A DNA stretch of 64,000 nt from Lachnospiraceae bacterium 62-26 (GTDB taxonomy: Bacteria; Bacillota; Clostridia; Lachnospirales; Lachnospiraceae): assembly GCA_041223685.1 (NCBI GenBank), contig JBCLQR010000015.1; one strand, written 5' to 3'. This document shows, one piece after another, positions 5,277 through 37,541 of this stretch (position 1 is its first letter; each line of letters begins with the position of its first letter). The notes under the pieces were generated by a model that was not told the origin of the DNA, ran no database searches, and saw only the letters and a program-made list of their open reading frames with translations. The translations under genes and the position numbers were made by a program.

Positions 5277-6014
5277 ATGGAAGGCTTTATAGACATGCAT
5301 TGTCATATATTGCCGGGAGTAGATGACGGCGCGAAAGATATCAAAGAGACGAAAGAGATGTTAAGGATCGCATATGAGGAAGGGATACGCTGTATTATTG
5401 CTACTCCACATCATCATCCAAAGCGTGGAAAAGAGAGCCCGAAGATATTGCGGCGGCAGGCTAAGCTGGTGCGGGAGGCCGCCCATGAGATAGACGAGCA
5501 TTTCCGTATCTATCTGGGGACAGAGATTTTCTTTGGACAGGATGTGCCGGACAAGCTGGAAGCCGGTGAGATATTATCCATGAATAACAGGGATTATGTG
5601 CTTGTGGAATTCTCGCCCTCTGATACTTATGCTTATATACGGCAGAGTCTCCAGCAGATGCAGATGGCCGGCTATGAGGTGATCCTCGCCCATGTAGAGA
5701 GATACAACTGTATTATCAAGGAGATTGAACTGGCAGAACAGTTGTGGGAGATGGGGATTCGTCTTCAGGTGAATGCGGACAGTATCACCGGCGAGAACGG
5801 CAGAGAGCTTAAGAAGTTTGTAAAGTGTCTGATGGACCAGGATCTTGTGTTCTGTGTTGGTACGGACGCACACAGCTGCCGGCACCGTGCACCCAGAATG
5901 AAGAAAGCGGCAGCCCAGGTAAAGAAGAAATTTGGCGATGAATATATGAGGAGGATATTCTTTGGCAATGCGAAGACGATGCTGAAGAAGTTACAGAAGA
6001 ATGAGTTACGATAA
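5277..6014 (+). CDS. cpsB: Capsular polysaccharide biosynthesis protein CpsB/YwqE-type PHP-family protein-tyrosine phosphatase
   Basis: 245 aa; N-terminal DMHCHILPGVDDG and ATPHHH PHP-phosphatase motifs; operon position immediately before Wzz and BY-kinase genes. Confidence 0.85.
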   Translation: MEGFIDMHCHILPGVDDGAKDIKETKEMLRIAYEEGIRCIIATPHHHPKRGKESPKILRRQAKLVREAAHEIDEHFRIYLGTEIFFGQDVPDKLEAGEILSMNNRDYVLVEFSPSDTYAYIRQSLQQMQMAGYEVILAHVERYNCIIKEIELAEQLWEMGIRLQVNADSITGENGRELKKFVKCLMDQDLVFCVGTDAHSCRHRAPRMKKAAAQVKKKFGDEYMRRIFFGNAKTMLKKLQKNELR

Positions 6015-12751: not shown

Positions 12752-13936
12752 TTATCGGTTTAAAAACCTTTCTACTATTTCAACAAATAGAGCAGATCCT
12801 TTGTACAATACGTCTTCATCAATGTTAAACTTTGGATTATGATGTGGAACGTCTGTATGTTTCTCTGCATCTGACGAACTGAGGAAGCAGAATGCTCCGG
12901 GTGCCTTCTGGAGATAATATGCGAAATCTTCTCCGCCCATATTCGGAGCTGGAATGGAGACGATAACATGCTCCCCGCCAGCAATATCTCTGGCCGCATC
13001 GGCCGCCAGTGCTGCCATCTCGTCATGATTCACGACCGGAGGCGCGCCCCAGTCAATCTCTACTTCGGCGCGGCCTCCGAAAGCGGCCGCCACGCCGCAG
13101 GCAATCTCCTGGATACGTTTTGCCTGATACTGTCTTATGTCTTCTTCCAGTGCTCGGATTGTTCCTTCAATCGTTACAGTTTCAGGGATAACATTATATA
13201 CATTACCGCCGTGTACGGAACCAATGGTGGTAACTGCGGGCTTTGTCGCGGCAATTTCTCTTGCAATGATCTCTTCCAGAGAGATTACAATGTGAGAGGC
13301 AATGTTGATCGGATCAACACCTTTTTCCGGTGATGAACCATGGCAGCCCTTTCCGTGTACCCTGATCACAAATCGGTCAAAGGAAGCCATACAGCATCCG
13401 GGTACGACGATAATAGTTCCCGATGGAGCGGTCTTGTCAATGATCGTGCCGATATGCTGTCCGAATACAGCATCCACGCCGTCCATCGCTCCGTCCTCGA
13501 TCATGATCTGGGCGCCTTTTGACAATTCTTCTGCTGTCTGGAACAGAAGCCGGACATTTCCGCATAATTCTTCCTTATGACTGCATAGCACCCTGGCCGC
13601 GCCAAGGAGCATTGCCGTGTGGGCGTCGTGTCCACAGGCGTGCATACATCCTTCATGAGTGGAAATGTAATCCACTCCGGTTGCTTCCTGTATGGCAAGT
13701 GCGTCCATGTCTGCACGAAGTGCAACGGTCCTGCCCGGCCTGCCTCCGGTGATATCTGCGATAATACTGCTGTCAGTTTTCGAACAGCGGTAAGGGATTC
13801 CAAGCTTTTCCAGTTCTTTTATTACGTATTGCTGTGTCTTTGGAAGCATCTTACCAACCTCCGGAATTTGGTGCAGTTCTCTTCTCATCTGAACCAGTCC
13901 GTCCTGCAATGCTTCGCATTCTTTCCACAAATTCAT
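12752..13936 (-). CDS. M20D family amidohydrolase (N-acyl-L-amino acid amidohydrolase/hippurate hydrolase-like)
   Basis: ORF-track frame; start moved to ATG at 13936 (MNLWKE..) which has GGGAGGATATCAGA RBS; motifs VALRADMDAL, CGHDAHTAM, M20 dimerisation region. Confidence 0.85.
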   Translation of the reverse strand: MNLWKECEALQDGLVQMRRELHQIPEVGKMLPKTQQYVIKELEKLGIPYRCSKTDSSIIADITGGRPGRTVALRADMDALAIQEATGVDYISTHEGCMHACGHDAHTAMLLGAARVLCSHKEELCGNVRLLFQTAEELSKGAQIMIEDGAMDGVDAVFGQHIGTIIDKTAPSGTIIVVPGCCMASFDRFVIRVHGKGCHGSSPEKGVDPINIASHIVISLEEIIAREIAATKPAVTTIGSVHGGNVYNVIPETVTIEGTIRALEEDIRQYQAKRIQEIACGVAAAFGGRAEVEIDWGAPPVVNHDEMAALAADAARDIAGGEHVIVSIPAPNMGGEDFAYYLQKAPGAFCFLSSSDAEKHTDVPHHNPKFNIDEDVLYKGSALFVEIVERFLNR

Positions 13937-13964
13937 TCTGATATCCTCCCAATCCAATATAAGC

Positions 13965-14633
13965 CTATGCTTTTTTATTTTCACGTGTGTATAATACTCT
14001 TGCCCATGCAAGGCTTCCGAATACTGCGACTACAATAAGGATCCATGCCTGAGGTGCAATCGTATATTTTAAGATCAGCGGCACACCTATTCCAAATACT
14101 GCCACCTTCGGGTATTTCAGCGCATATGTCGCGAAAGTGGCGCCGAAGATTGCGGACGCAGCGTATTTTGTAAGTCCGGCAACGATAAATTCCGGAAGAA
14201 CGGCCACTATGGTCGCACCTAAGAATACAGCCGCCGTTGTCGCAACGAGATTAGTGATGATCGAACCGCAGATCGCCATAGTAGAGACGACCTCAGCCTG
14301 GATGGAGCCGGTCTCGCTGTCAGTTACTTCAAGTGCCATCGTCGCACAGGGTACACGCATATTCCCGATATTACCCGACAGAAAACTCAGATATGTTCCC
14401 GTCATACCAAGTGCCGCATAGTAAGATACAGGTTCTACTACATAGAACGCTCCAAAAGATAATGCGACCATTCCCCAACCGGCCAGCACAACCTTTGGAT
14501 CCGGCCAGCAATCATATGTAATACACAGCCAGACAGCCGGCAGAAATGCGGTAAACGCCGCAAGGAGATTTGTTGGGGAGCCAATCCGTATACTTCCCCT
14601 TTTCCATTCCTTCATCAAACTCTTATTATCCAT
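13965..14633 (-). CDS. Polytopic membrane protein, likely transporter subunit co-operonic with the M20 amidohydrolase
   Basis: 222 aa, about 6 hydrophobic helices; stops 28 nt before the amidohydrolase start on the same strand. Confidence 0.6.
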   Translation of the reverse strand: MDNKSLMKEWKRGSIRIGSPTNLLAAFTAFLPAVWLCITYDCWPDPKVVLAGWGMVALSFGAFYVVEPVSYYAALGMTGTYLSFLSGNIGNMRVPCATMALEVTDSETGSIQAEVVSTMAICGSIITNLVATTAAVFLGATIVAVLPEFIVAGLTKYAASAIFGATFATYALKYPKVAVFGIGVPLILKYTIAPQAWILIVVAVFGSLAWARVLYTRENKKA

Positions 14634-14644
14634 TTCCTTCCCTC

Positions 14645-15355
14645 CTATATGCCTGCCGTCATGTCATAGATAATTCCGCACGCCATTCCGAGAATCATCG
14701 CCATTCCCAAAGTATATTCTTTGATTTTCGGATATTTCGGTACTACAAATTTTTGCAGAAGGGCCATAGAGATGATACCGCCGATAACTGCCGATGCATT
14801 TCCAATGCCCTTCGCAATGTCGTTCGCGTTCAGGTAACCGAAAATACCGATGGAACATGCTCCGCTTAATGCAACCAGCCACTTCGAATCACCGCCGGAC
14901 ATCTTATCGCGGACCTTCTCGAGCGCCGGTGTAAAGCAGCCTGTCACAACCAGCCATCCGGCTCCGTTAAGCGCCATGACGAACCAGGTGATTGCCATCA
15001 CATTCAGCGTAAAGCCGGCACCCCCAAGTTCTGCTCCGGCCGCTTCCGCCCCCAGGGTTGCGGCCGTAAGCTCTGTAGGCGCCGCACCAATAATGGAAAG
15101 ACGCATCCACGCCATCGGCCCGCCGATAGAAGACATAAGTCCTACCATTACGATGAACACGCCAAGGGCAGGCCCGATTGCCGAGATAAGGCCGACACGG
15201 AAAGCCTGCTTTGGAACCGCTGCCGGGATATTTGCCTTAACCGTCATTTTCCGGGCCATTCTGATATAAAGAACAGCCTGTAGAAGGGCGATTACCACCG
15301 TGACTCCGCACAGGAGGTACACGGTAAGTGAGTTTGAGATTTTTACATAATCCAT
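14645..15355 (-). CDS. Polytopic membrane protein, second putative transporter subunit
   Basis: 236 aa, Gly/Ala-rich helices; first gene of the minus-strand operon, divergent from the PucR-family regulator. Confidence 0.6.
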   Translation of the reverse strand: MDYVKISNSLTVYLLCGVTVVIALLQAVLYIRMARKMTVKANIPAAVPKQAFRVGLISAIGPALGVFIVMVGLMSSIGGPMAWMRLSIIGAAPTELTAATLGAEAAGAELGGAGFTLNVMAITWFVMALNGAGWLVVTGCFTPALEKVRDKMSGGDSKWLVALSGACSIGIFGYLNANDIAKGIGNASAVIGGIISMALLQKFVVPKYPKIKEYTLGMAMILGMACGIIYDMTAGI

Positions 15356-15597: not shown

Positions 15598-17229
15598 ATG
15601 ACAGTTTATGAGTTATTACAGGTCCCGTCATTGTCAGGATTCAAGGTGATATCAGGAGAACTGGGGCTTCACCGGAAGATATCCACGGTTACGGTGATCG
15701 ATACGCCCGACGGATTTAACTGGCTGAACGGCAACGAGGTAGTGATCACGACTACTTATGCGTTCAGAGACAGCGACGCTTCCTTCTGTGAGTTTGTGGA
15801 AAAGCTGATTTCACGCAACGCCAGCGCGTTGTTTGTCAAGACGGGGCGCTATCTGAAGGAAGTGCCTAAGAGAGCCATCGACCTGTCTGATGCATGTGAT
15901 TTTCCACTCATTTTCTGTCCGGGGAAATATTCCTTTGCAGACATTATCACGCCTGCGCTGTCCAGCATTATCGTCAGTCAGGCTGCGGAACTTAAGGAAG
16001 CAAGTCTTATCCATGAGAAGTTCACAACTCTGGCAATCAATGACAATACCATACCAGAGATCCTAAAGGCTTTAAGTTCACTGATCCACCGCCCCACGGC
16101 CTACGTAGATACGGTGTTTAAGAATATATATTTTTCAGACAATACGCAGCCTGAATTCCTGTCTCTGCGAAGTCTGTCCTACAGTGAGAGTCTGTCTAAG
16201 CTCGCAGAGACAGAGGATTTTGAACAGTTTACCGTCAATAATAAGAAGCGCCGGTTCGGCTATATATTTATCCTCAGGGAACAGAAAGAATCGGCGGAGA
16301 AAAGTGAGTGGGAGAACAGTATATTTAAGACTGCGGTTGAGAATGCGGGTGTTGTTATCATTCTGCGGATGCAGGTGCTCATCAGTACGAACCTTATCGA
16401 AGAGAAGTATAATTCTTCTTTTGTTGAGGATCTGATGTTCCACAATGTTAAGACGCGGGAAGAGATCCAGACCAGATCTCTGCTCTACGGATGGAATCTA
16501 AGCGGCGGCGGGTGTGTGGTTATCATAGATATCAATAATATCAAAAAGCATTATTTACAGAAACTGGATTCAGATACGAATAATAAGCTGCGGACGTACA
16601 CAGAGCACATATTTGATACGTCTATCTCCTGTATGACACGCTCCTTTTCAAATGCAAAATACTATCAGCAGAGCGACTTTATATCATTTCTCCTTCCGGG
16701 AAAGGAAGCTGCGTCTGCCAGACCGGTACTTGAGAAGGTATTTTCAGAACTGCGGGGGAATCTTGCAGGCAGTGTTCCCTTTACTGTTTCAATGGCTGTA
16801 GGGGCATATATTGACGATGTGATCAATATTCATCAGAGTTTTGAGCAGGCGAAGAATGTTATACAGATTATCTACCAGCTTCAGCGGTTTGACTGTATCA
16901 TGTTTTACGAGCAGCTGGGTATATTCAAGGTTTTGTTTTCCGTTTCGGATCAGGAGGAGGCGGTTGAATTTTGCAGAAAATATATTGCGCCGTTAAAAGA
17001 ATATGACAGACAGCATAATTCTACGCTGATAGAAACATTGCAGGTGATTGTAAACTGTGGATGGAATATAAAGGCGGCTTCGGAGCAATTGTTTATACAT
17101 TATAACTCAGCAAAATATCGGTTTAATAAAATCTGCGAGATACTTGAAATGGATCTGCATGACGCGACGCTTCACACAGAGATTGATCTGGCGCTCAAGA
17201 TATATATGATACGGAATAAAAATGTATAG
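15598..17229 (+). CDS. PucR family transcriptional regulator (purine-catabolism-regulator-like, C-terminal HTH)
   Basis: 543 aa; PucR-type N-terminal domain (..TVIDTPDGFNWLNGNEVVITTTYAF..), GGDEF-like middle, C-terminal HTH (LQVIVNCGWNIKAASEQLFIHYNSAKYRFNKICEIL). Confidence 0.85.
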   Translation: MTVYELLQVPSLSGFKVISGELGLHRKISTVTVIDTPDGFNWLNGNEVVITTTYAFRDSDASFCEFVEKLISRNASALFVKTGRYLKEVPKRAIDLSDACDFPLIFCPGKYSFADIITPALSSIIVSQAAELKEASLIHEKFTTLAINDNTIPEILKALSSLIHRPTAYVDTVFKNIYFSDNTQPEFLSLRSLSYSESLSKLAETEDFEQFTVNNKKRRFGYIFILREQKESAEKSEWENSIFKTAVENAGVVIILRMQVLISTNLIEEKYNSSFVEDLMFHNVKTREEIQTRSLLYGWNLSGGGCVVIIDINNIKKHYLQKLDSDTNNKLRTYTEHIFDTSISCMTRSFSNAKYYQQSDFISFLLPGKEAASARPVLEKVFSELRGNLAGSVPFTVSMAVGAYIDDVINIHQSFEQAKNVIQIIYQLQRFDCIMFYEQLGIFKVLFSVSDQEEAVEFCRKYIAPLKEYDRQHNSTLIETLQVIVNCGWNIKAASEQLFIHYNSAKYRFNKICEILEMDLHDATLHTEIDLALKIYMIRNKNV

Positions 17230-17325: not shown

Positions 17326-19896
17326 CTAACAAGTGGCGCCCCCGACTACATTTTTCTCAAGAATCTGCTTCTTATCAATCCTGCTGTTCAGCAGTTTATC
17401 CTGTACGTAGTCGAATCCAAGCCTTGCGACGGTATCTGCAAAGCGTTCTCCGGAAATACCCTCATCACGGAAGAACAGGATCGCGTTTTCGACCAGATCA
17501 AGAACTTCTTCTTCTGTGGCAAAAACCTTATCTAACGCGCGTCCTTCGGCGGCCTTCTTGCCCCAGCGTCCTCCTATGTAGACCTTATAGCCGGTCAGAG
17601 CTTCTGTTACCGCGCCAAACGGGCATCTGTCGATACAGCGTCCGCAATGGTTGCACTGATCCGGAGCGATACGAAGTTTACTGTCCTCTACACTGGCGAT
17701 CTTGATCGGACAGCTGTTCTGAACCTGGCAGGTCTTACAGCCTTTACATTTGGACAGATCGATCTCCGGCAGACGCTGGCCGATGATCCCGAGATCGTTC
17801 AGGTCCGGTTTTACACAGTTATTCGGACATCCGCCCACGGCAATCTTGAATTTATGAGGCAGAGACACATGGTGATAGCCAGTGTAATACAGGTCGTGCA
17901 GTTTCTCGGAGAGTGCGAAGGTGTCTATAAGGCCGTACTGGCAGGTCGTGCCTTTACAGGATACCACCGGACGCACTTTGGAGCCGGTTCCGCCGGTCTT
18001 AAGTCCGGCTTCCTCAAGGAAGGCAAAGAGCGGTTCCAGATTGTCATAGTTAACGCCCTGTATCTCAAGAGTAAGACGGGTGGTCATTGTGACTTCGCCG
18101 GAGCCGAATCTCTCGGCCGCCTGCGCAACCTTCATCTGTTCTTCTGAGGTCAGCTTACCGTTCCGGGTGATGACGCGGACGTTGAACACATCATCATACC
18201 GCTTATCTTGCAGGCATCCCAGCCCCTTAACGCGCTTGATCTCATCGGCAGACAGCTTTTTGCCGTCACGGGGTACTTTTACATCATTGAAGAACGCTCC
18301 GCCCTCCAGGACCTTTGTGCCGGTATAGCCGTAAGCTTTCAGGCGGTTCTGTAGAAAATAGCCTCTCTTGCCCTTTGCACACACGAGCAGAAGCTTTGCA
18401 TCTTTTGGGAGTCCGTCGATCGGGGCGTTGACAGAAGCCAGATCGATCCAGCGCGCGTTAGGAAGCGCCGGGGAGGGTTGTACATCCAGTACGGTATATC
18501 CCTTTGCCATGCCGGCCGCATATTCAGCCGGGCTCATAGACTCAAGCAGTCCGTCGATCTTATTTTCCAGGATATAGCACGCAGAGACGAACGGATGGAT
18601 CGCGGTGGAAAATGGCGGTGCATATGCAAAATCGAGGGTATCAAAGTCGTCAAGCTTCATACCCTGAGAGATTCCCACAACGGCGGTATCTGTGATCTTA
18701 TCTACGGCGCCCGGGCCAAATACCTGGATGCCGAGGAGCTTCCTGGTGGAGGTCTCGGCGGTCAGCTTGATAACAAAGGATGAAGCGCCTGGATAGTAGT
18801 GGGCCTTGTCATCCAGCACACAGGTCACAGAGGCCGTGTCATAGCCGGCAGATTTTGCCTGTGCTTCTGTAAGACCGGTACGTCCGCCGTTCAGAGAAGG
18901 AAGCAGACGGACAACGCCGGTTCCAAGGCATCCGCCGTATCCGTATCCTGCGCCGTTCAGGGATTTGGCCATGGCACGTGCCGCCAGGTTGGCGGTAGAG
19001 CCCATGGCGGACCACTGGTCTTTGCCGGTCTGGGCATTCTTCACCATAGCGCAGTCGCCAACGGCATAGACATCCGGCAGGTTTGTCTTCATCCGGCTGT
19101 CCACAAGGATGGTTCCTTTGAACATCTCAATTCCGGAATCGTTAAGGAATGCAGTCGCCGGACGGACGCCGATCGCCATGATCACGAGATCTGCGGCGAA
19201 GGTGCCGTTATTGGTGATCACCTTCTCGGCTTTGCCGTTCCCTTCGATTCTCTCAAGAGCGGCGGAGGTCAGCACGCGCATACCGGCCGCTTTGAGCTGC
19301 CTCCTGGCGTAGTCTGCCATCTCCTCATCGAAAGCGTTAGGCATAATCTGAGGTGCGGCGTCGATGGTGGTTACCTCAAGGCCGAGAGCCATCAGGTTTT
19401 CAGCCGCTTCAAGGCCGATAAAGCCAGCCCCGCAGACAACGGCTTTACGGCATTTCTGCTCCTGTGCATAAGCCCGTACATTTACCGCGTCATCAGGGGT
19501 GCGCACGCAGAATACGCCGGGAAGGTCTCTTCCTTCTACCGGCGGAACAAAAGGCACGGCGCCGGTTGCGATGATCAGTTTGTCATAGTCCTCTGTGAAT
19601 GTCCCGCCGGAGGCTTTTTTGAAAGAGACGGTCTTGCCGGCGCTGTCAATGCCGACGGCTTCGCATCCTGTAAATACCTCGACGCCGGTTAATCCCGAAT
19701 AGCGCGTTGGCGTGTTGACGATCAGGGCTTCTCGGGTTGGGATATCCCCGCCGATATAATAGGGAAGTCCGCAGCCTGCGTAGGAGATATCCCCGCCTTT
19801 CGTGTAGACCTTGACCTGAGCGTTCCTGTCACAGCGTTTCAGCTTGGCGGCCGCTTTTGTTCCGGCAGCGACGCCGCCTAGAATTACATACTTCAT
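17326..19896 (-). CDS. Multidomain redox enzyme: FAD pyridine-nucleotide disulfide oxidoreductase (CoA-disulfide/persulfide reductase-like) + rhodanese + nitrite/sulfite-reductase-type siroheme/4Fe-4S ferredoxin domain
   Basis: Start moved to ATG 19896 (MKYVILGGVAAG.., RBS AAAGGAGAA). N-terminus GGxAAG FAD fold with redox Cys in YAGCGLPYY; mid rhodanese with active Cys LLLVCAKGKR; C-terminus VSCKGTTCQ..GGCPNNC (sulfite/nitrite reductase Cys motif) and two ferredoxin CxxCxxCxxxCP motifs. Confidence 0.8.
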   Translation of the reverse strand: MKYVILGGVAAGTKAAAKLKRCDRNAQVKVYTKGGDISYAGCGLPYYIGGDIPTREALIVNTPTRYSGLTGVEVFTGCEAVGIDSAGKTVSFKKASGGTFTEDYDKLIIATGAVPFVPPVEGRDLPGVFCVRTPDDAVNVRAYAQEQKCRKAVVCGAGFIGLEAAENLMALGLEVTTIDAAPQIMPNAFDEEMADYARRQLKAAGMRVLTSAALERIEGNGKAEKVITNNGTFAADLVIMAIGVRPATAFLNDSGIEMFKGTILVDSRMKTNLPDVYAVGDCAMVKNAQTGKDQWSAMGSTANLAARAMAKSLNGAGYGYGGCLGTGVVRLLPSLNGGRTGLTEAQAKSAGYDTASVTCVLDDKAHYYPGASSFVIKLTAETSTRKLLGIQVFGPGAVDKITDTAVVGISQGMKLDDFDTLDFAYAPPFSTAIHPFVSACYILENKIDGLLESMSPAEYAAGMAKGYTVLDVQPSPALPNARWIDLASVNAPIDGLPKDAKLLLVCAKGKRGYFLQNRLKAYGYTGTKVLEGGAFFNDVKVPRDGKKLSADEIKRVKGLGCLQDKRYDDVFNVRVITRNGKLTSEEQMKVAQAAERFGSGEVTMTTRLTLEIQGVNYDNLEPLFAFLEEAGLKTGGTGSKVRPVVSCKGTTCQYGLIDTFALSEKLHDLYYTGYHHVSLPHKFKIAVGGCPNNCVKPDLNDLGIIGQRLPEIDLSKCKGCKTCQVQNSCPIKIASVEDSKLRIAPDQCNHCGRCIDRCPFGAVTEALTGYKVYIGGRWGKKAAEGRALDKVFATEEEVLDLVENAILFFRDEGISGERFADTVARLGFDYVQDKLLNSRIDKKQILEKNVVGGATC

Positions 19897-20109
19897 GAAA
19901 TGAGTTCTCCTTTCTTGTTCCATGCTTTTACATATATTATAATACCTGCCGTCCAAAAAGGAAATCTCTTGACATTATAATACTTGCCATTCATTAAGAA
20001 AAATCGTAAAATGAAATCTATAATCGGTCCAATCTTTTTTGCATCCCATGCATGGTAAGGATTGGGGCATCTGAAAAAGGTCATCTGACAGAGAAGGAGT
20101 AGAAGCAGA

Positions 20110-22377
20110 ATGGGTATTTTATATAATGAACAGGCAGGGATTTTTAAACTGGATGCGCTGGATACCAGTTACGTGATCGGTATCTTTGACGATGAGAGGT
20201 TTGTCTCGCATCTATATTATGGAAAGAAGATCATAGACTCGGATGTGCGTTATCTCTACGGTCCGTTATACCAGGTCCGTCCGTCGGTACTGCCGGGGCA
20301 GGCGGGGCGTATCATGGATGCAGTCCCCTTTGAATATCCGACCTTCGGATGCGGGGATTATCGTGAGCATTGTCTCGAGGTGGAGACGGTTGACGGGTAT
20401 CATGCCTGTGATCTGCGCTATGAAGCGCATAAGATTTATCCGGGCAAGCCGGCTCTTGAGGGACTGCCGTCGACTTTTGAGCGGGAAGCGGGTGATTGTA
20501 ACACGTTGGAACTGGTCTGCCGGGATAAGGTACTGAATCTTGGAGTAACGCTTCTTTATACGGTATTTGAACAGCTTAACGTGATTACCCGTGCTGTTCT
20601 TGTTACGAATGAAGATTCGAATGCTGTGTATATAAAAAGAGTCCTGTCAGGATGCGTGGAATTCGATCATCAGAACTTTGATGTGATGACACTTCACGGA
20701 AGCTGGGAGAGGGAATGCGGGCCGGTCCGCACGCCGCTGCGGCAGGGAAAGATCGTTACAGAAAGTACCAGGGGAGAGTCCGGTCCTACGGACAATCCGT
20801 TTCTGGCTGTGCTTTCCTGTGACGCCACAGAAGATACCGGAGAGGTATTTGCCATGAATCTGGTATATTCCGGCAATTTCCTTGGAGTTGCACAAGGCCA
20901 TCATTTTCGCGGTACACGGATCGTAATGGGAATCAATCCGGTCAATTTCAGCTGGAAACTGGAGCCGGGCGATACTTTTACGGCTCCGGAGGTTGTGATG
21001 GTCTATTCTGACCGGGGGCTTGGGAAAATGAGCAGGACCTTTCATGATCTGTACAGAGGGCATCTGATCCGTGACGTTTATCCGGATACGTCAAGGCCGG
21101 TCCTGATCAATAACTGGGAAGCTACGTATTTTGGGTTTACCTTTGACAGGCTGATTGAGATTGCGGCAGAGGCGTCGAAGTGCGGTATCGAATTATTTGT
21201 GCTGGACGACGGATGGTTTGGAGACCGGAACGATGAAACGAAAGGATTAGGAGACTGGTTCGTCAATGAAGAAAAGCTGCCGGGCGGTATCGCCCGCCTT
21301 TCAAAGGAGATCAACAAGCTTGGCATGAAGTTCGGACTGTGGATCGAGCCGGAGATGGTAAGTCCCGATTCTGAGCTGTTTCGCGAGCACCCGGATTGGG
21401 CGATACAGATTCCGGGAAGGCACCGGTCGTTGTTCCGACATCAATATGTTCTGGACTGGTCCAGAAGAGAAGTGCGAAGCCATATCTATGATATGATCCA
21501 TCAGGTGCTATCCGGCGCAAATGTTGAGTATATTAAGTGGGATATGAACCGTACTCTGACAGAGGCGGCGTCTGCGGCGCTTCCGGCAGACCGTCAGGGC
21601 GAGCTGTGCCACCGGTATGTACTGGGAGTCTATGAGATCATGGGAAGGCTCAGAGAGGATTTCCCTTCACTGCTTCTGGAAAATTGTTCTGCGGGCGGTT
21701 CGCGGTTTGACCCGGGCGTGCTCTATTACAGCCCTCAGATCTGGGGTTCCGACGATTCAGACGCGATAGAGCGGATCCAGATAGAGATGGGAGCCTCCAT
21801 GTGCTATCCTCTTTCCACGATAGGCGCGCATGTGAGCGCGGTGCCTAATCATCAGACCGGCAGGATCACGCCGCTTGAGACGCGGGGATATGCGGCCATG
21901 GCCGGGACGTTTGGGTATGAGCTTAATATTGCGCAGATGAGCGAGGCGGAGAAGGCGGTTATCCGTGAGCAGGTGGATATTTATCATAAATATAATTGGA
22001 TCGTGAAGGAAGGAGATCTCTACCGGATCGGAGATCCTTTTGCAAACCGTGATCATGCATGTTGGATGGTTGTATCCAGGGATAAGAAGGAAGCGCTCGT
22101 GACTTATATCCAGACACATGCTCTGCCGGGGTATTTCGGTTCTGCAAGAAAGCTGAGGCTGAAAGGATTGATGGATGAGGCGGTTTACAGGGCGGAGGTG
22201 ATCTCTGTCTCGTCAGAGGTTGTGAACGGGGATGCGCATCTGGAAGGCGGGCAGAATGCAGGAAAAGGCCGTGAGGTGCTGGAAGTGTCCGGATCGGCGC
22301 TTATGAACGCCGGATACTGGATGGAGCGTCTGGGAGGCGATTATATGGGGATGATGATACATCTGAAAGCCGAATAG
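20110..22377 (+). CDS. GH36 alpha-galactosidase
   Basis: 755 aa; GH36 catalytic region motifs FVLDDGWFGDRNDETKGLGDW, KWDMNR, ENCSAGG; adjacent GPH sugar symporter. Confidence 0.9.
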   Translation: MGILYNEQAGIFKLDALDTSYVIGIFDDERFVSHLYYGKKIIDSDVRYLYGPLYQVRPSVLPGQAGRIMDAVPFEYPTFGCGDYREHCLEVETVDGYHACDLRYEAHKIYPGKPALEGLPSTFEREAGDCNTLELVCRDKVLNLGVTLLYTVFEQLNVITRAVLVTNEDSNAVYIKRVLSGCVEFDHQNFDVMTLHGSWERECGPVRTPLRQGKIVTESTRGESGPTDNPFLAVLSCDATEDTGEVFAMNLVYSGNFLGVAQGHHFRGTRIVMGINPVNFSWKLEPGDTFTAPEVVMVYSDRGLGKMSRTFHDLYRGHLIRDVYPDTSRPVLINNWEATYFGFTFDRLIEIAAEASKCGIELFVLDDGWFGDRNDETKGLGDWFVNEEKLPGGIARLSKEINKLGMKFGLWIEPEMVSPDSELFREHPDWAIQIPGRHRSLFRHQYVLDWSRREVRSHIYDMIHQVLSGANVEYIKWDMNRTLTEAASAALPADRQGELCHRYVLGVYEIMGRLREDFPSLLLENCSAGGSRFDPGVLYYSPQIWGSDDSDAIERIQIEMGASMCYPLSTIGAHVSAVPNHQTGRITPLETRGYAAMAGTFGYELNIAQMSEAEKAVIREQVDIYHKYNWIVKEGDLYRIGDPFANRDHACWMVVSRDKKEALVTYIQTHALPGYFGSARKLRLKGLMDEAVYRAEVISVSSEVVNGDAHLEGGQNAGKGREVLEVSGSALMNAGYWMERLGGDYMGMMIHLKAE

Positions 22378-22400
22378 GGATGAAAGGCGGGGAGGATCTG

Positions 22401-24011
22401 ATGCGGAAAGAGTTCAATATTACAGGGTTGTGTGTGCCGAGGAAGCATTATATGGTGAATTTAGACGATCGTCTGGAACGGATGAAGAAAATGGTTGATA
22501 AGGGGAATTATTTTGCTATAAACCGTGCGAGGCAGTATGGGAAAACGACAACGCTTGCAGCACTGGCGAATTATCTGAGTGATAAGTATGTTGTGATATT
22601 TATAGATTTTCAGACAATCGGAAATGCAATGTATCAGGATGAAGACGCATTTGCAAGGGCGTTTGCAATTTGCTTTTTGGATGAATTTCGCACAGAATAT
22701 TCGGACTGGTCCGAAGAAATGAGACATAAGGCAGACGGGCTTGAGAAGTTGTTGGAGGAGCAGGAGAAGCCGTTTTACCTGATGAATCTGTTCAGATATC
22801 TGACCGCTTTCTGTAAGATGACCGAAAAACCGATGGTTCTGATGATTGATGAGACCGACAGTGCGGCGGATAACCAGGTGTTTTTGGATTTCCTGTCACA
22901 GCTTCGTAATTATTATCTTCAAAGGGAGCGGAAAGGAACAGAAACATTCCATTCTGTGATACTGGCGGGGGTTCATGATGTTAAGAATCTGAAAGGGAAG
23001 CTTAGGCCGAAAGAAGACGGAAGGACGAACAGCCCATGGAATATTGCTGTAAATTTTGATCTGGATATGAGTTTTTCCAAAGATGAGATAGCCGGTATGT
23101 TGAAGGAATATGAGAAAGATGTGGATTCGGGAATGGATGTTGATAAGATGGCCGGGCTGATCTATGATGAGACGTCAGGCTATCCGTTTCTGGTATGTCG
23201 CTTGTGTAAGATCATAGATGAAGAACTGCCGGAGATGCTGGATTTTCGGAATCTTTCTGAAGCCTGGAGCAGGATGGGGTTTCTTGCGGCAGTACGCATA
23301 CTGGTTCTTGAAAAGAATACATTGTTTGATTCTCTGAATCATAAGCTGGAGGAATATCCTGAATTGGAGAGGGTTATCGGCAAAGTATTGTTTAATGGGG
23401 AAAAGATTGTATATAATCCGGATCTTAGGGAAATTGATGTTGCGATGATGTTTGGATTCGCGAAACGAAAGGACGCCTCAGTTGTGATCGCGAACCGTAT
23501 TTTTGAGACACGGCTTTATAATCGTTTCCTTGCGTCTGAAGAATGGAAAGAGAGTGAGATCACACAGGCGTCTTTTTTGGATAAAAATGGGTTTGTGAGG
23601 GACGGCCGTTTAAATATGCGAAGAATACTCGAGAAATTTGTGATACATTTTCAAGAGTTATATGGAGGGAAGGATCATAAATTTATAGAAGAGTATGGAA
23701 GACGTTTTTTTCTGTTATATCTCCGTCCCATTATAAACGGAACCGGAAATTACTATATTGAGGCACAGACCAGAGATAAAAAGCGGACTGATGTCATCGT
23801 AGACTATCACGGGGAGCAATTTATTATTGAGATGAAGCTGTGGCACGGAAAAGAATATCATGAAAGAGGAGAAGCACAGCTTGCTGAATATCTGGACATT
23901 TATCAGAAGCGGACAGGATATATGCTGAGTTTTAATTTTAATAAAAAGAAAGAGACCGGTGTATTTGAGCGGATGATCGGTGACAAGCGGATTATAGAAG
24001 CAATAGTGTAA
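22401..24011 (+). CDS. AAA-ATPase (DUF1703-type) with C-terminal PD-(D/E)XK nuclease-like domain
   Basis: Start set to ATG 22401 (MRKEF.., RBS GGCGGGGAGGA); Walker A RQYGKTTTLAAL; C-terminal YYIEAQTRDKKRTDVIVDYHGEQFIIEMKLW resembles PDDEXK_9. Confidence 0.8.
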   Translation: MRKEFNITGLCVPRKHYMVNLDDRLERMKKMVDKGNYFAINRARQYGKTTTLAALANYLSDKYVVIFIDFQTIGNAMYQDEDAFARAFAICFLDEFRTEYSDWSEEMRHKADGLEKLLEEQEKPFYLMNLFRYLTAFCKMTEKPMVLMIDETDSAADNQVFLDFLSQLRNYYLQRERKGTETFHSVILAGVHDVKNLKGKLRPKEDGRTNSPWNIAVNFDLDMSFSKDEIAGMLKEYEKDVDSGMDVDKMAGLIYDETSGYPFLVCRLCKIIDEELPEMLDFRNLSEAWSRMGFLAAVRILVLEKNTLFDSLNHKLEEYPELERVIGKVLFNGEKIVYNPDLREIDVAMMFGFAKRKDASVVIANRIFETRLYNRFLASEEWKESEITQASFLDKNGFVRDGRLNMRRILEKFVIHFQELYGGKDHKFIEEYGRRFFLLYLRPIINGTGNYYIEAQTRDKKRTDVIVDYHGEQFIIEMKLWHGKEYHERGEAQLAEYLDIYQKRTGYMLSFNFNKKKETGVFERMIGDKRIIEAIV

Positions 24012-24048
24012 TACGCCTCTCCCAACCTAAAAATAAGACAACAAAACA

Positions 24049-24066
24049 TTGTCATATTCATGACAA
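24049..24066. promoter_or_regulatory. 18-bp palindrome TTGTCATATTCATGACAA upstream of the GPH symporter gene (candidate operator)
   Basis: 7-4-7 perfect inverted repeat about 100 nt upstream of the 24164 start. Confidence 0.3.
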
Positions 24067-24163
24067 CTTGTAAAATACTAAGAAATCTAAAAAATGTACG
24101 GATTCTGACAGGGCAGAATGTCTGTTATCCTTTTCTTAGCGATAAGAAAGGGAGGAGACAAAG

Positions 24164-25546
24164 ATGAATAATACTTCTACAACGGACGGAAAGCTTACCT
24201 GGAGAATCCGGGTTTCCTATGCAGGCGGAGACGTGGCGTGTAACGTGATCTTCGGAATGGTCGGAACGCTGCTTACACTTTTTTATACGGATTATGTGGG
24301 GATCAATCCGGCGACGGTCGGTATGGTCATGCTGATCTCACGTCTGTTTAACGGTGTTTCAGATCTGGTCATGGGAATGATCGTGGAGCGCACCAATTCA
24401 AAATGGGGGAAATCAAGGCCCTGGATTTTGTGGATGAGCGTGCCATACGCGCTGTCAGCCGTTCTTTTGTTTACCGTGCCGCATTCTTCGGCGATGGTGC
24501 AGGCCGTCTACATATTTGTAACCTATAATTTCTGCACGACCATATGCTATACGGCCGTCAATCTCCCCTACGGAAGTCTTTCGGCCATGATGACACGGAT
24601 ATCGGCAGAGAGAGATATGCTGAGCGTTGTGAGGATGGGGCTGTCTCCGCTTGGAAGGATTATGGCAGTGACATTTACCCTTCCTCTGGTGAAGCTGTTC
24701 GGGGATGATCAGGCGGCATGGGTTAAGACGATGGCGGTGTGGGCCGTGATCGCGCTGATCCTTCTGGTCATCTGCTTTGTAGAATGTAAGGAGACTGTAG
24801 TGATCACCGCGAAGAAGGAGGCGAAGACGGTTTCGACAGGAAAGGGACTGAAAGCGCTGGTTACGAATCAGTATTTCTGGGCTGTCCTTGTGCTTTGGAT
24901 GCTGCAAAGCGTATCCTTTGGGATATCCGGTACGATCCTTCCATACTATTGTAAATATATTTTCCATAATGATACCTGGATGTACAGCGCGCTCTATCTG
25001 ACAGAGACCTTGGTACTGGTCGCATGTATCTTCCTGTGTGCTCCGCTGATCAGGAAGTATGGCAAGAGAAATGCGGCCTTTGCAGGTGCGGTGACCGCCC
25101 TTGCGGGACAGCTGTTATTCTTTTTGAATCCATACAGCTTCACGTGGATGGTGGGAAGCTGTGTACTCCGTGCAGTAGGGCTGGCGCCTTTGAATGCGGC
25201 GGTATTCGGAATGATCGGGGATGTGGTGGAATTCGGACAATGGAAAACGCATATCCGTCAGGAGAGCCTGATATTCGCGGGCGGTTCCATCGGTACGAAG
25301 GTGGGTGCGGGACTGGCGTCTGCGCTCATGACAGGAATGCTCTCTGCGGCAGGATATATCAGCACGTCAACAGGAAGCGTGACACAGCCGGAGTCCGCGC
25401 TGAACTGTATTGTTACCATCTATAAGTTCGGGCCGGTGATCGTTGCCGGGATTGCAGTGATCACGCTTGCGCTGTATAAGCTTGATAAGAAGTATCCGTC
25501 TATCATGGAGGAACTGATGAAGAGAGAGGCACAAGGAGAGTTATAA
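24164..25546 (+). CDS. Glycoside-pentoside-hexuronide (GPH):cation symporter, MelB-like
   Basis: 460 aa, 12 TM; GPH signature region (VSYAGGDVACNVIFGMV..YTDYVGINPATVGMVMLISRLFNGVSDLVMG..RTNSKWGKSRPWIL). Confidence 0.85.
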   Translation: MNNTSTTDGKLTWRIRVSYAGGDVACNVIFGMVGTLLTLFYTDYVGINPATVGMVMLISRLFNGVSDLVMGMIVERTNSKWGKSRPWILWMSVPYALSAVLLFTVPHSSAMVQAVYIFVTYNFCTTICYTAVNLPYGSLSAMMTRISAERDMLSVVRMGLSPLGRIMAVTFTLPLVKLFGDDQAAWVKTMAVWAVIALILLVICFVECKETVVITAKKEAKTVSTGKGLKALVTNQYFWAVLVLWMLQSVSFGISGTILPYYCKYIFHNDTWMYSALYLTETLVLVACIFLCAPLIRKYGKRNAAFAGAVTALAGQLLFFLNPYSFTWMVGSCVLRAVGLAPLNAAVFGMIGDVVEFGQWKTHIRQESLIFAGGSIGTKVGAGLASALMTGMLSAAGYISTSTGSVTQPESALNCIVTIYKFGPVIVAGIAVITLALYKLDKKYPSIMEELMKREAQGEL

Positions 25547-36641: not shown

Positions 36642-37541
36642 ATGAAGATAGCATTCGATGTAGATGTATTGGCGAAGCAGATGGGTATTAATGATATGGT
36701 TCATCAGGTTGCGGACTGGGGTTACAAATATATTGAGCAGTCCCCGCACCCGCGTATCAACCCGTTCTACAAGCATCCGTTGTTTTCTAAAGAGTGTGAG
36801 GCGGAGTATAGAAAGGCTCTTCGCGAGACAGGTGTGGAGATCTCCTCTTTTATCGTTGTATACCGCTGGTCCGGTCCGACAGAGGAGCAGCGGCAGATGG
36901 CGGTGGCAAACTGGAAGCGGATGGTTGAGATTGCAGTAGATATGGGAGTACAGGTGATCAACACGGAGCTTTCCGGCGACCCCAATCAGCAGGAAATCTG
37001 CAATGGTATGTGGTTCCGCTCTATGGATGAACTGCTGCCGTTGTTTGAGAAGGAAGGGATCCGTGTAGAGATACAGTCACATCCGTGGGATTTCTGCGAG
37101 TTGAATAATGAGACCTGCGATATGGTGAAGAGTTATCGTTCCGATAATCTGAAATATGTATATTCTTCCCCGCACGGTTTCTTCTACGACAAGGGCGCGG
37201 GCGATGTCCGTTCGATGCTCAAGTACGCGGGCGATGATCTGAGCCATGTATTATTTGCAGATACGTACAACCAGACCAAGGATTGCAGATATATCCTGAA
37301 TCCGCCGTGGCTTAACAGTATGGGAAGAGAAGATGTTTCCATTCATCAGCATAATCCGATGGGAGAAGGGGATGTGGATTTTGACGGGATCTTCGAGACG
37401 CTGAGAGAGATGGATTTTGCAAACAGACAGTTTAAAGCAGGCGGAGACGCAATCTCCTGTGTATCTATCTTCGGATATCCGGAGCGCATGGCGGTTGAAG
37501 CTCCAAAGGCAAGAGAGATCATTGAGCGTGAATTATTATGA
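36642..37541 (+). CDS. Sugar phosphate isomerase/epimerase family TIM-barrel protein
   Basis: 299 aa; xylose-isomerase-like fold pattern; stop overlaps the next gene start (ATGA at 37538-37541). Confidence 0.7.
   Translation: MKIAFDVDVLAKQMGINDMVHQVADWGYKYIEQSPHPRINPFYKHPLFSKECEAEYRKALRETGVEISSFIVVYRWSGPTEEQRQMAVANWKRMVEIAVDMGVQVINTELSGDPNQQEICNGMWFRSMDELLPLFEKEGIRVEIQSHPWDFCELNNETCDMVKSYRSDNLKYVYSSPHGFFYDKGAGDVRSMLKYAGDDLSHVLFADTYNQTKDCRYILNPPWLNSMGREDVSIHQHNPMGEGDVDFDGIFETLREMDFANRQFKAGGDAISCVSIFGYPERMAVEAPKAREIIERELL

Follow-up and report, generated by a model that had tools for sequence, protein, structure and literature searches.

The 64,000-nucleotide stretch of Lachnospiraceae bacterium 62-26 analyzed here (contig JBCLQR010000015.1, hereafter the window) carries on its minus strand a complete gene for an 856-amino-acid protein, in which a flavoprotein and a rhodanese domain are fused to a siroheme sulfite-reductase-type domain with an inserted ferredoxin module (Table 1). 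An initial annotation of this DNA had parsed the product into three modules, namely a coenzyme A (CoA)-disulfide/persulfide-reductase-like part binding flavin adenine dinucleotide (FAD), a rhodanese and a siroheme/[4Fe-4S] part, and every element of this parse was borne out by Pfam searches and structure alignments. Pyr_redox_2, Rhodanese, NIR_SIR, NIR_SIR_ferr and Fer4 were all found, identifying the C-terminus as being of genuine siroheme sulfite-reductase type and not of an unrelated Fe-S family, and the motifs that had been quoted, YAGCGLPYY (Cys42), LLLVCAKGKR (Cys506) and CKGTTCQ...GGCPNNC, are all present. Regarding the start site, the open reading frame listing also gives an upstream TTG at 19956; since the orthologues start at MKYV, the ATG and not this TTG was taken as the start. 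An identical protein is deposited as MEY8411673.1 under the label 'FAD-dependent oxidoreductase [Lachnospiraceae bacterium 62-26]', and the automatic JGI name lists both COGs. No well-characterised enzyme equal to the 856-amino-acid protein was found.

Table 1. Features of the fusion gene and its product (window coordinates; residues refer to the 856-amino-acid protein).
Feature	Coordinates	Strand	Evidence or remark
Complete coding sequence, 856 amino acids and stop codon	17326..19896	minus	ATG at 19896, stop at 17326-17328
Ribosome-binding site AAAGGAGAA, 8 nt before the ATG	19905..19913	minus	read from sequence
Pyr_redox_2, FAD/NADH-binding pyridine-nucleotide-disulfide oxidoreductase domain, residues 1-290	19027..19896	minus	Pfam 215 bits
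Redox-active Cys42 of CoADR/Npsr/CoAPR type, in SYAGCGLPYY	19771..19773	minus	invariant 77/77
Pyr_redox_dim dimerisation domain, residues 338-433	18598..18885	minus	Pfam 52.6 bits
Rhodanese domain, residues 456-533	18298..18531	minus	Pfam 23.9 bits, weak (cutoff 22.2)
Rhodanese active-site Cys506, loop C-A-K-G-K-R (motif LLLVCAKGKR)	18379..18381	minus	invariant 77/77
NIR_SIR_ferr ferredoxin-like half domain, residues 569-630, with Arg574 and Arg607	18007..18192	minus	Pfam 51.4 bits
NIR_SIR siroheme/[4Fe-4S] domain, residues 638-837	17386..17985	minus	Pfam 102 bits
Siroheme-coupled cluster ligands Cys647, Cys652, Cys690, Cys694 (CX4C-X37-CX3C)	17815..17958	minus	invariant 77/77
Inserted ferredoxin module, two [4Fe-4S] motifs, residues 710-764	17605..17769	minus	Pfam Fer4_10, Fer4_7, Fer4
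C-terminal extension, residues 838-856, ending GGATC-COOH; Cys856 codon 17329-17331	17329..17385	minus	invariant 77/77

The distribution of the same fusion, a check proposed in the initial annotation, was determined in a scan with one genome per species that returned 123 relatives, from which 80 species-level loci were kept for the analysis of gene context and 77 full-length orthologues were aligned. These orthologues are 58-86% identical to the window protein, with pairwise identities down to 54%, and all cofactor and catalytic residues are invariant among them, while several other cysteines vary freely. All of the 120 best clusters at 90% identity are full-length (853-912 amino acids), and at 50% clustering the whole architecture is represented by about three clusters, the query's own, P0121 (56% identity) and P0123 (44%), the latter two carrying all key cysteines and the tail. 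The 80 kept genomes comprise Lachnospiraceae (Dorea, Blautia, Schaedlerella, Sporofaciens), Oscillospiraceae/Ruminococcaceae and metagenome-assembled genomes of Spirochaetales; the enzyme family also occurs in Roseburia hominis, and the Spirochaetales carriers are gut organisms.

Residues 2-533 of the N-terminal part could be aligned over their full span with four solved structures, those of E. faecalis CoAPR (CoA-persulfide reductase; 8a56, E 6e-97), A. fulgidus Npsr (NADH-dependent persulfide reductase; 6pfz), B. anthracis CoADR-RHD (3icr) and S. loihica Npsr (3nta), and in the first three both catalytic cysteines are in register. Foldseek searches with the AlphaFold2 (AF2) model gave TM scores of ~0.7, the top matches being 8a56, 3ict, 6pfz and 3nta, and this fold match to rhodanese-bearing persulfide reductases, together with the end-to-end alignment, backs the weak Pfam match of the rhodanese domain. 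The counterpart of Cys42 in CoAPR lies in its active-site motif SFANCGLPYY, with equivalent motifs in 6pfz and 3icr, and Cys506 aligns with the rhodanese cysteines of CoAPR (CHSGLR, C508), AfNpsr (CAIGLR, C519) and BaCoADR-RHD. The dinucleotide-binding motifs GGVAAG and GAGFIGLE are invariant, and Asp179 (76 D, 1 E), which closes the second strand of the NAD domain, occupies the Glu position of the strictly NADH-specific AfNpsr. Across the orthologues the rhodanese loop reads C-[ATNV]-[KR]-G-K-R, and the CAKGKR of the window protein is more cationic than the corresponding loops of CoAPR, AfNpsr and BaCoADR-RHD (CQLGMR).

In CoAPR the catalytic cysteine is C42, and both C42 and C508 are needed, with CoA bridging them (PMC9405070); persulfides and polysulfides are reduced by CoAPR and Npsr with NADH via the rhodanese cysteine, a swinging CoA arm and the flavin-adjacent cysteine (PMC9405070, PMC7969121). 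With these enzymes (3nta, 6pfz, 8a56, 3icr) residues 1-540 share fold and length, the single redox cysteine in S-[YF]-A-x-C-G-L-P-Y, the NADH-type site and a C-terminal rhodanese having its active cysteine and an arginine at +5. Pfam matches to Pyr_redox_2, Pyr_redox and Pyr_redox_dim, the invariant dinucleotide motifs and the Foldseek matches place the flavoprotein in the class I pyridine-nucleotide-disulfide oxidoreductase fold. As judged from sequence and predicted fold, residues 1-540 have the make-up of a complete persulfide reductase of the Npsr/CoAPR type, with FAD, an NADH site, Cys42 and the rhodanese Cys506. In contrast, the following 320-residue siroheme/Fe-S extension is present in no characterised member of this group.

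The nearest solved structures to the C-terminal 290 residues are those of the methanogen F420-dependent sulfite reductase, Fsr (7np8 and 7npa, E ~1e-37; aligned span 565-831), with DsrA, DsrB, NirA and the CysI-type assimilatory hemoprotein being far weaker matches. We mapped the active-site residues by alignment in MjFsr numbering, following the structural paper on this enzyme (10.1101/2022.04.07.487323). The sulfite-binding residues Arg355, Arg423, Lys460 and Lys462 of MjFsr correspond to Arg574, Arg642, Lys682 and Lys684, which are identical and invariant in all 77 orthologues, as is Arg607, the counterpart of the assimilatory-type Arg388. Since nitrite-reducing group II FsrII enzymes carry Gly or Lys at the Arg positions (PMC9295563) and all of these arginines are kept here, the pocket is of the sulfite (FsrI) type. 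Concerning the inserted ferredoxin module, the two CxxCxxCxxxCP clusters of the initial annotation could be retained in part, in that the second motif has this spacing (Cys748/751/754/758) and the first reads CxxCxxCx5CP (Cys717/720/723/729); all eight cysteines are invariant. These two inserted clusters are equivalent to the 'peripheral' and 'additional' [4Fe-4S] clusters carried by group III Dsr-LP (PMC3448663), and with subgroup d of these proteins the domain shares, besides the clusters, all four Arg/Lys residues and a predicted siroheme-[4Fe-4S] centre, whose four cysteine ligands are present and invariant but spaced CX4C-X37-CX3C. A standalone group-IIId Dsr-LP acts as a sulfite reductase in vivo: M. 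maripaludis gains from it resistance to sulfite and the ability to use it, and mutants in this protein are thiosulfate-sensitive as well (10.1101/2024.03.05.583561). The C-terminal 290 residues are accordingly assigned by homology as a complete group-IIId Dsr-like sulfite reductase, with siroheme-[4Fe-4S] ligands, two more clusters and an Arg/Arg/Lys/Lys pocket.

Beyond the siroheme domain, the protein continues into an extension of ~20 residues with a terminal cysteine. Among all homologues collected, 121 of the 123 full-length fusions end in GGAxC; of the two exceptions, one ends in GGSTC, whereas P0122 is chimeric and has a FecCD-like C-terminus. In the AF2 model, pLDDT falls below 50 for residues 851-856, following a short helix (842-847), as expected for a flexible arm. 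The extension is absent from a set of 295-314-amino-acid standalone relatives that are 45-73% identical to the domain, and it is kept in 10/10 fusions of the siroheme domain to a C_GCAxxG_C_C module as well as in a few genuine standalone proteins. Two of the latter, P0362 and P0348, bear the tail with no thiol partner nearby, which weakens the notion that the tail occurs only alongside a fused or adjacent thiol module. A selenocysteine form of the terminal cysteine, hinted at by the GGAT end of P0319, was rejected, as 77/77 loci read TGC or TGT followed by a stop; P0319 stops one residue short, most likely because the record is incomplete, and selenocysteine was found in place of none of the catalytic cysteines in the orthologue set.

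Some apparent standalone entries required a closer reading. P0313, nominally standalone plus tail, is a full fusion broken by an assembly gap, in which a run of N in the rhodanese-coding part (L083:~5778-5802) splits the gene into called proteins of 481 and 320 amino acids; 'standalone' siroheme entries such as P0313 can thus be assembly artefacts. Many similar entries begin within the rhodanese domain and are probably fragments. As for P0122 (770 amino acids), it matches fusion residues 155-711 before its FecCD-permease-like C-terminus; it could be an artificial chimera due to misassembly or a frameshift, or else be genuinely fused to the importer gene next to it. The C_GCAxxG_C_C proteins constitute a second fusion family of ~441-452 amino acids, likewise uncharacterised, with the same Dsr-like domain and GGA[TS]C tail behind an N-terminal putative redox domain (PF09719); its members are P0131, P0317, P0318, P0328, P0341, P0352, P0361, P0364, P0369 and P0375, one gene lying at L086:6001-7359.

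Two diverged lineages carry the same two parts as separate, adjacent genes. In one, P0125 (545 amino acids, 55% identity, CoADR-RHD with loop CAKGKR) lies 119 bp upstream of a 317-amino-acid Dsr-LP ending in SGGATC; in the other, 84 bp separate P0127 (546 amino acids, 51% identity, loop CAKGKN) from the gene of another Dsr-LP downstream, apparently of the tail-less type (L089). The occurrence of the parts as a fusion in one lineage and as adjacent genes in two others is Rosetta-stone evidence that they work together. These comparisons of sequence and gene order show the flavoprotein-rhodanese and siroheme parts to be a conserved evolutionary partnership, kept as a fusion or as neighbouring genes.

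With respect to known enzymes, none of the NCBIfam equivalog assignments applies, as CoADR (NF007123, 363 bits vs 458; TIGR03385, 356 vs 579), NirB (TIGR02374, 256 vs 578, in three matching stretches with the best at the N-terminus), AsrC (TIGR02912, 103 vs 324), DsrA (TIGR02064, 94 vs 393) and DsrB (TIGR02066, 85 vs 342) all stay below their curated cutoffs. Pfam gave no match to a Fer2_BFD [2Fe-2S] domain, the rhodanese occupying the position of BFD in NirB, nor to a DsrC domain, the tail having one cysteine, at its very end. A close parallel is Fsr, which likewise combines, in one chain, flavin-dependent input with a single Dsr-like siroheme domain and an inserted two-cluster ferredoxin. 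Nevertheless, the Pfam parse contains no FrhB-like F420H2 oxidase domain, the N-terminus being a pyridine-nucleotide-disulfide oxidoreductase, and the protein is therefore not a member of Fsr. Input in Fsr comes from the FrhB-like oxidase with its own Fe-S clusters, whereas here it comes from an NADH/FAD/Cys persulfide reductase and a rhodanese; the relay comprises five clusters in Fsr and two here, the siroheme-cluster motif is CX5C in Fsr and CX4C here, and beyond the aligned region Fsr runs on for only ~13 residues (to 620 amino acids), against the ~20-residue Cys-ended extension here. In AsrABC, electron input is provided by the separate subunits AsrA and AsrB, whereas here the input partner is covalently fused and a terminal Cys tail is present. 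The likeness to DsrAB-DsrC-DsrK is one of logic only, in that a siroheme sulfite reductase is combined with a thiol-based reductase and with a flexible C-terminal arm bearing cysteine. A DsrC fold is absent, the arm has one cysteine instead of the two of DsrC, and the active site is of assimilatory type.

In full-text searches of openly accessible papers, we found no published description of the fusion. The nearest are the uncharacterised NirA/Sir-rhodanese fusions of Halobacteria (PMC11237513), in which a siroheme reductase is also joined to a rhodanese, but which are four-domain assimilatory enzymes without a flavoprotein module. The parts of the protein are familiar, whereas their combination, the Cys-terminated arm and the conserved linkage to an importer (see below) are not.

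The gene context of the relatives was analyzed in the 80 kept loci. Directly downstream of the fusion gene, 13/80 loci carry an importer composed of Peripla_BP_2, FecCD and ABC-ATPase genes (L039, L040, L042, L048, L049, L059, L060, L064, L066, L068, L069, L075, L079), and in further loci the importer comes after a siroheme-domain gene (L083-L086, L088, L090, L091), so that it follows the siroheme gene in every architecture, whether full fusion, C_GCAxxG fusion or standalone form, tailed or tail-less. The binding-protein gene is all that can be seen of the importer in L083, L090 and L091, in the latter two only by resemblance of a cut-off reading frame, and a gene resembling the start of the binding protein also comes after the tail-less P0134. 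The importer is of the iron-chelate/heme/B12 class, the best match of the binding protein being IsdE at 66 bits, far under the cutoff. The sole riboswitch or T-box match in the scan of the window and four related loci was a T-box leader (99.5 bits) at L039:13292-13522, immediately after the ABC-ATPase gene on the downstream side of the fusion.

In the operon of one standalone relative, Dsr-LP and ABC-importer genes are closed by a gene for a 199-amino-acid NAD_binding_7 protein (L088:9782-10381). NAD_binding_7 is the fold of precorrin-2 dehydrogenase/sirohydrochlorin ferrochelatase, the siroheme synthase fold (SirC, CysG-N), and the presence of this gene supports siroheme as the real cofactor of the clade. 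Apart from the importer and a LysR regulator, the only recurring neighbours are NifS (9 loci) and FeoAB (at split loci), and no conserved neighbour from sulfur metabolism was found. With importer, NifS and FeoAB genes near the relatives and NAD_binding_7 in L088, the context points to the supply of iron, Fe-S clusters and siroheme rather than to a particular sulfur substrate. As for the LysR regulator, about 30 of the 80 loci have its gene ~60-260 bp ahead of the fusion and transcribed divergently (e.g. L020:195-1160 and L007:6799-7824), and the same arrangement is seen at split loci (L081:4934-5857, L082:882-1805). Its best NCBIfam match is the 'selenium metabolism-associated LysR' model at 164 bits, against a cutoff of 250, with YeiE next at a similar score. 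Both the divergent LysR regulator and the FecCD-type importer are absent from the window.

As to how the modules may cooperate, the initial annotation had proposed a relay of persulfide sulfur from the rhodanese directly to the siroheme site, an idea that finds no support in this form. The substrate of sulfite reductases is sulfite and not persulfide, and the persulfide reductases known to bear a rhodanese send sulfane sulfur the other way, toward the FAD/Cys site and CoA (PMC9405070, PMC7969121). A better fit to the evidence is given by two reductive sites acting in parallel or in series on one sulfur flux, and we favour, with somewhat better than even confidence, an NADH-linked sulfidogenic reductase whose flavoprotein would feed the Fe-S/siroheme line while keeping its own thiol line, and whose rhodanese and Cys856 would handle sulfur other than sulfite.

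According to this model, the protein would be a cytoplasmic, probably homodimeric and self-sufficient enzyme that follows the logic of Fsr, flavoprotein input plus Dsr-like module, with a different input module. NADH would reduce the FAD, from which electrons would pass singly via the two ferredoxin clusters to the siroheme centre, where sulfite, held by Arg574, Arg642, Lys682 and Lys684, would be reduced to sulfide. In a parallel thiol line, running from Cys506 to bound CoA and on to Cys42/FAD, and perhaps including the flexible Cys856, sulfane sulfur would be converted to H2S with NADH. Its source may be the outer sulfur of thiosulfate, cleaved at the cationic rhodanese loop with release of the sulfite half beside the siroheme site, or zero-valent sulfur leaving the siroheme. 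The net reaction would be that of sulfite, probably also thiosulfate or polysulfide, with NADH to give H2S, with possible roles in sulfite detoxification, in sulfur assimilation or as a fermenter's electron sink.

The flavoprotein is probably also a source of electrons for the siroheme centre. Its relatives 8c0z_E (in the PDB a potential aldehyde oxidoreductase subunit), PadH and the NirB N-terminus are tied to Fe-S chains, to which they pass electrons, so that transfer from FAD to Fe-S has precedent. In Fsr itself, electrons pass from flavin via [4Fe-4S] clusters to siroheme, and sulfite is fully reduced to sulfide (10.1101/2022.04.07.487323). For Halanaerobium, the conversion of thiosulfate to sulfide by rhodaneses together with an anaerobic sulfite reductase is documented (PMC5497025).

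A number of observations weigh against this scheme. Flavins of the CoADR type normally perform two-electron thiol chemistry, which leaves direct transfer from FAD to a [4Fe-4S] cluster hypothetical in this subfamily. The standalone Dsr-LPs work without a flavoprotein module, so ferredoxin could be the true donor, and inter-domain packing in the AF2 model is unreliable (predicted TM score, pTM, 0.54), giving no FAD-to-cluster distance. The siroheme-cluster spacing CX4C is one residue below the canonical CX5C, the alignment to the CX5C...CX3C of Fsr requiring a one-residue gap. As the tail is missing from some 70-73%-identical standalone relatives and probably from the L089 split pair, it is not essential for the core reaction. 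Furthermore, neither the window nor the 80 loci have sulfite, thiosulfate or sulfate-assimilation genes adjoining the fusion, and no SAM riboswitch, T-box or other riboswitch was found ahead of it, the scan covering the window and four related loci.

Several other readings of the same evidence were weighed. In the most far-reaching of these, which we regard as unlikely, the protein would be a soluble, single-chain, eight-electron NADH:thiosulfate reductase, its rhodanese loop splitting thiosulfate into Cys506 persulfide and sulfite and its Cys856 swinging as an arm between the sites; the persulfide would be reduced via CoA, Cys42 and FAD, and the siroheme would capture and reduce the sulfite, thereby pulling the unfavourable cleavage forward. 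Another reading is a 'mini-Dsr' relay in cis: ferredoxin would feed the two [4Fe-4S] clusters, the siroheme would reduce sulfite only as far as zero-valent sulfur, Cys856 would take it up as a persulfide or trisulfide in the manner of DsrC and pass it to Cys506 and CoA, and NADH/FAD/Cys42 would carry out the last two-electron step like DsrK. Invariance of the flexible tail in the fused forms and its retention in the C_GCAxxG_C_C fusions are in keeping with such a relay, as are the invariance of Cys42 and Cys506 and the keeping of the rhodanese even in the split partners P0125 and P0127. We nevertheless judge it rather improbable, given that Arg607 in place of the DsrA Thr, and CXnC as opposed to the CCX3C of DsrB, are assimilatory/Fsr traits of full six-electron reduction, that the arm has one cysteine where DsrC has two, that tail-bearing standalone relatives lack a nearby thiol partner (L087, L088), and that in L089 a tail-less type is apparently paired with a CoADR-RHD. 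A similarly low probability is assigned to two co-located but independent activities, an NADH persulfide/polysulfide (or CoA-persulfide) reductase and a ferredoxin-dependent sulfite reductase with no transfer between them. Each half is indeed a complete copy of an enzyme known to act alone, and the AF2 model shows no confident packing between the domains; yet the length stays at about 856 amino acids across families and phyla with conserved linkers, and the halves are adjacent in two independent, diverged lineages, a pattern that usually means physical cooperation.

Substrates other than sulfur compounds appear far less probable. An NADH-dependent nitrite or hydroxylamine reductase of NirB- or FsrII-like type, serving nitrite detoxification or ammonification, would be compatible with the three stretches matched by the NirB model and with the reduction of nitrite by siroheme sulfite reductases including Fsr, but the NirB score lies far under its cutoff, the BFD [2Fe-2S] domain is missing, the pocket is of the FsrI type with all arginines, and the rhodanese and persulfide-reductase cysteines would have no role in nitrite chemistry; we consider this reading very improbable. 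Equally remote is a function in selenite reduction and selenium delivery, in which the siroheme would reduce selenite and the rhodanese and terminal cysteine would carry perselenide for selenophosphate synthesis. Fsr does reduce selenite (10.1101/2022.04.07.487323), sulfite reductases are listed among selenite-reducing enzymes (PMC9312934), and the LysR regulator finds its best match in the selenium-associated model; this match, however, is well under the cutoff, with YeiE and others scoring similarly, selenium genes such as selD and yedE/yedF are not among the recurrent neighbours at the 80 loci, and no selenocysteine forms of the catalytic cysteines were found.

Returning to the NADH-linked sulfidogenic reductase, its possible significance lies in the gut. 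H2S formation there is usually ascribed to Desulfovibrio and Bilophila (dsrAB), carriers of asrABC and cysteine degraders. The sequence comparisons suggest that the fusion, which is widespread in gut Firmicutes and so far uncharacterised, is probably an enzyme producing hydrogen sulfide; since databases name the family only 'FAD-dependent oxidoreductase', it would escape surveys of sulfur genes. Provided that the enzyme can use NADH to reduce sulfite or thiosulfate, it would give abundant fermenters both an electron sink and a source of sulfide, and a Dsr-like siroheme domain would have acquired a flavoprotein electron donor for a second time, independently of Fsr. Should the thiosulfate reductase reading hold, abundant gut Lachnospiraceae would possess an unrecognised route turning host-derived thiosulfate or sulfite into H2S that is invisible to dsrAB/asrABC/cysJI catalogues. 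A single chain combining persulfide reductase, rhodanese, Cys-ended arm and siroheme would also be a tractable system for studying sulfur handover between thiol and siroheme.

In the window itself, the neighbours of the fusion gene are unrelated to it, with a convergent PucR gene on one side and a divergent GH36 cluster on the other. The convergent arrangement with the PucR-family regulator gene (15598-17229, plus strand), noted in the initial annotation, was confirmed. This regulator gene is divergent from a minus-strand DUF5058/M20-peptidase operon (12752-15355), which encodes DUF5058 (14645-15355), a 222-amino-acid protein without Pfam match (13965-14633) and the M20 peptidase (12752-14011). 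As PucR faces this other operon and is not a conserved neighbour across the related loci, regulation of the fusion gene by PucR is unlikely, and its own target is probably the DUF5058/M20-peptidase operon.

On the other side lies, divergent from the fusion gene, a cluster for carbohydrate use (20110-25546) that encodes a GH36 alpha-galactosidase, an AAA-like ATPase and an MFS_2 transporter; the GH36 neighbour is common to only 3 other related loci, and local synteny is consequently low. The intergenic region of 213 bp that precedes the fusion gene contains GGCA[AG]GTATTATAAT twice on the minus strand (19936-19944 and 19974-19982, 38 bp apart). The promoter scan gave no score to the two copies, which are possible -10-like boxes or an operator repeat. 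Elsewhere in the window, a 707-amino-acid open reading frame (37538-39661) joins an MFS_2 sugar transporter (residues 31-456) to a C-terminal cytidylate-kinase-like Cytidylate_kin2 domain (509-686), which is an unusual fusion.

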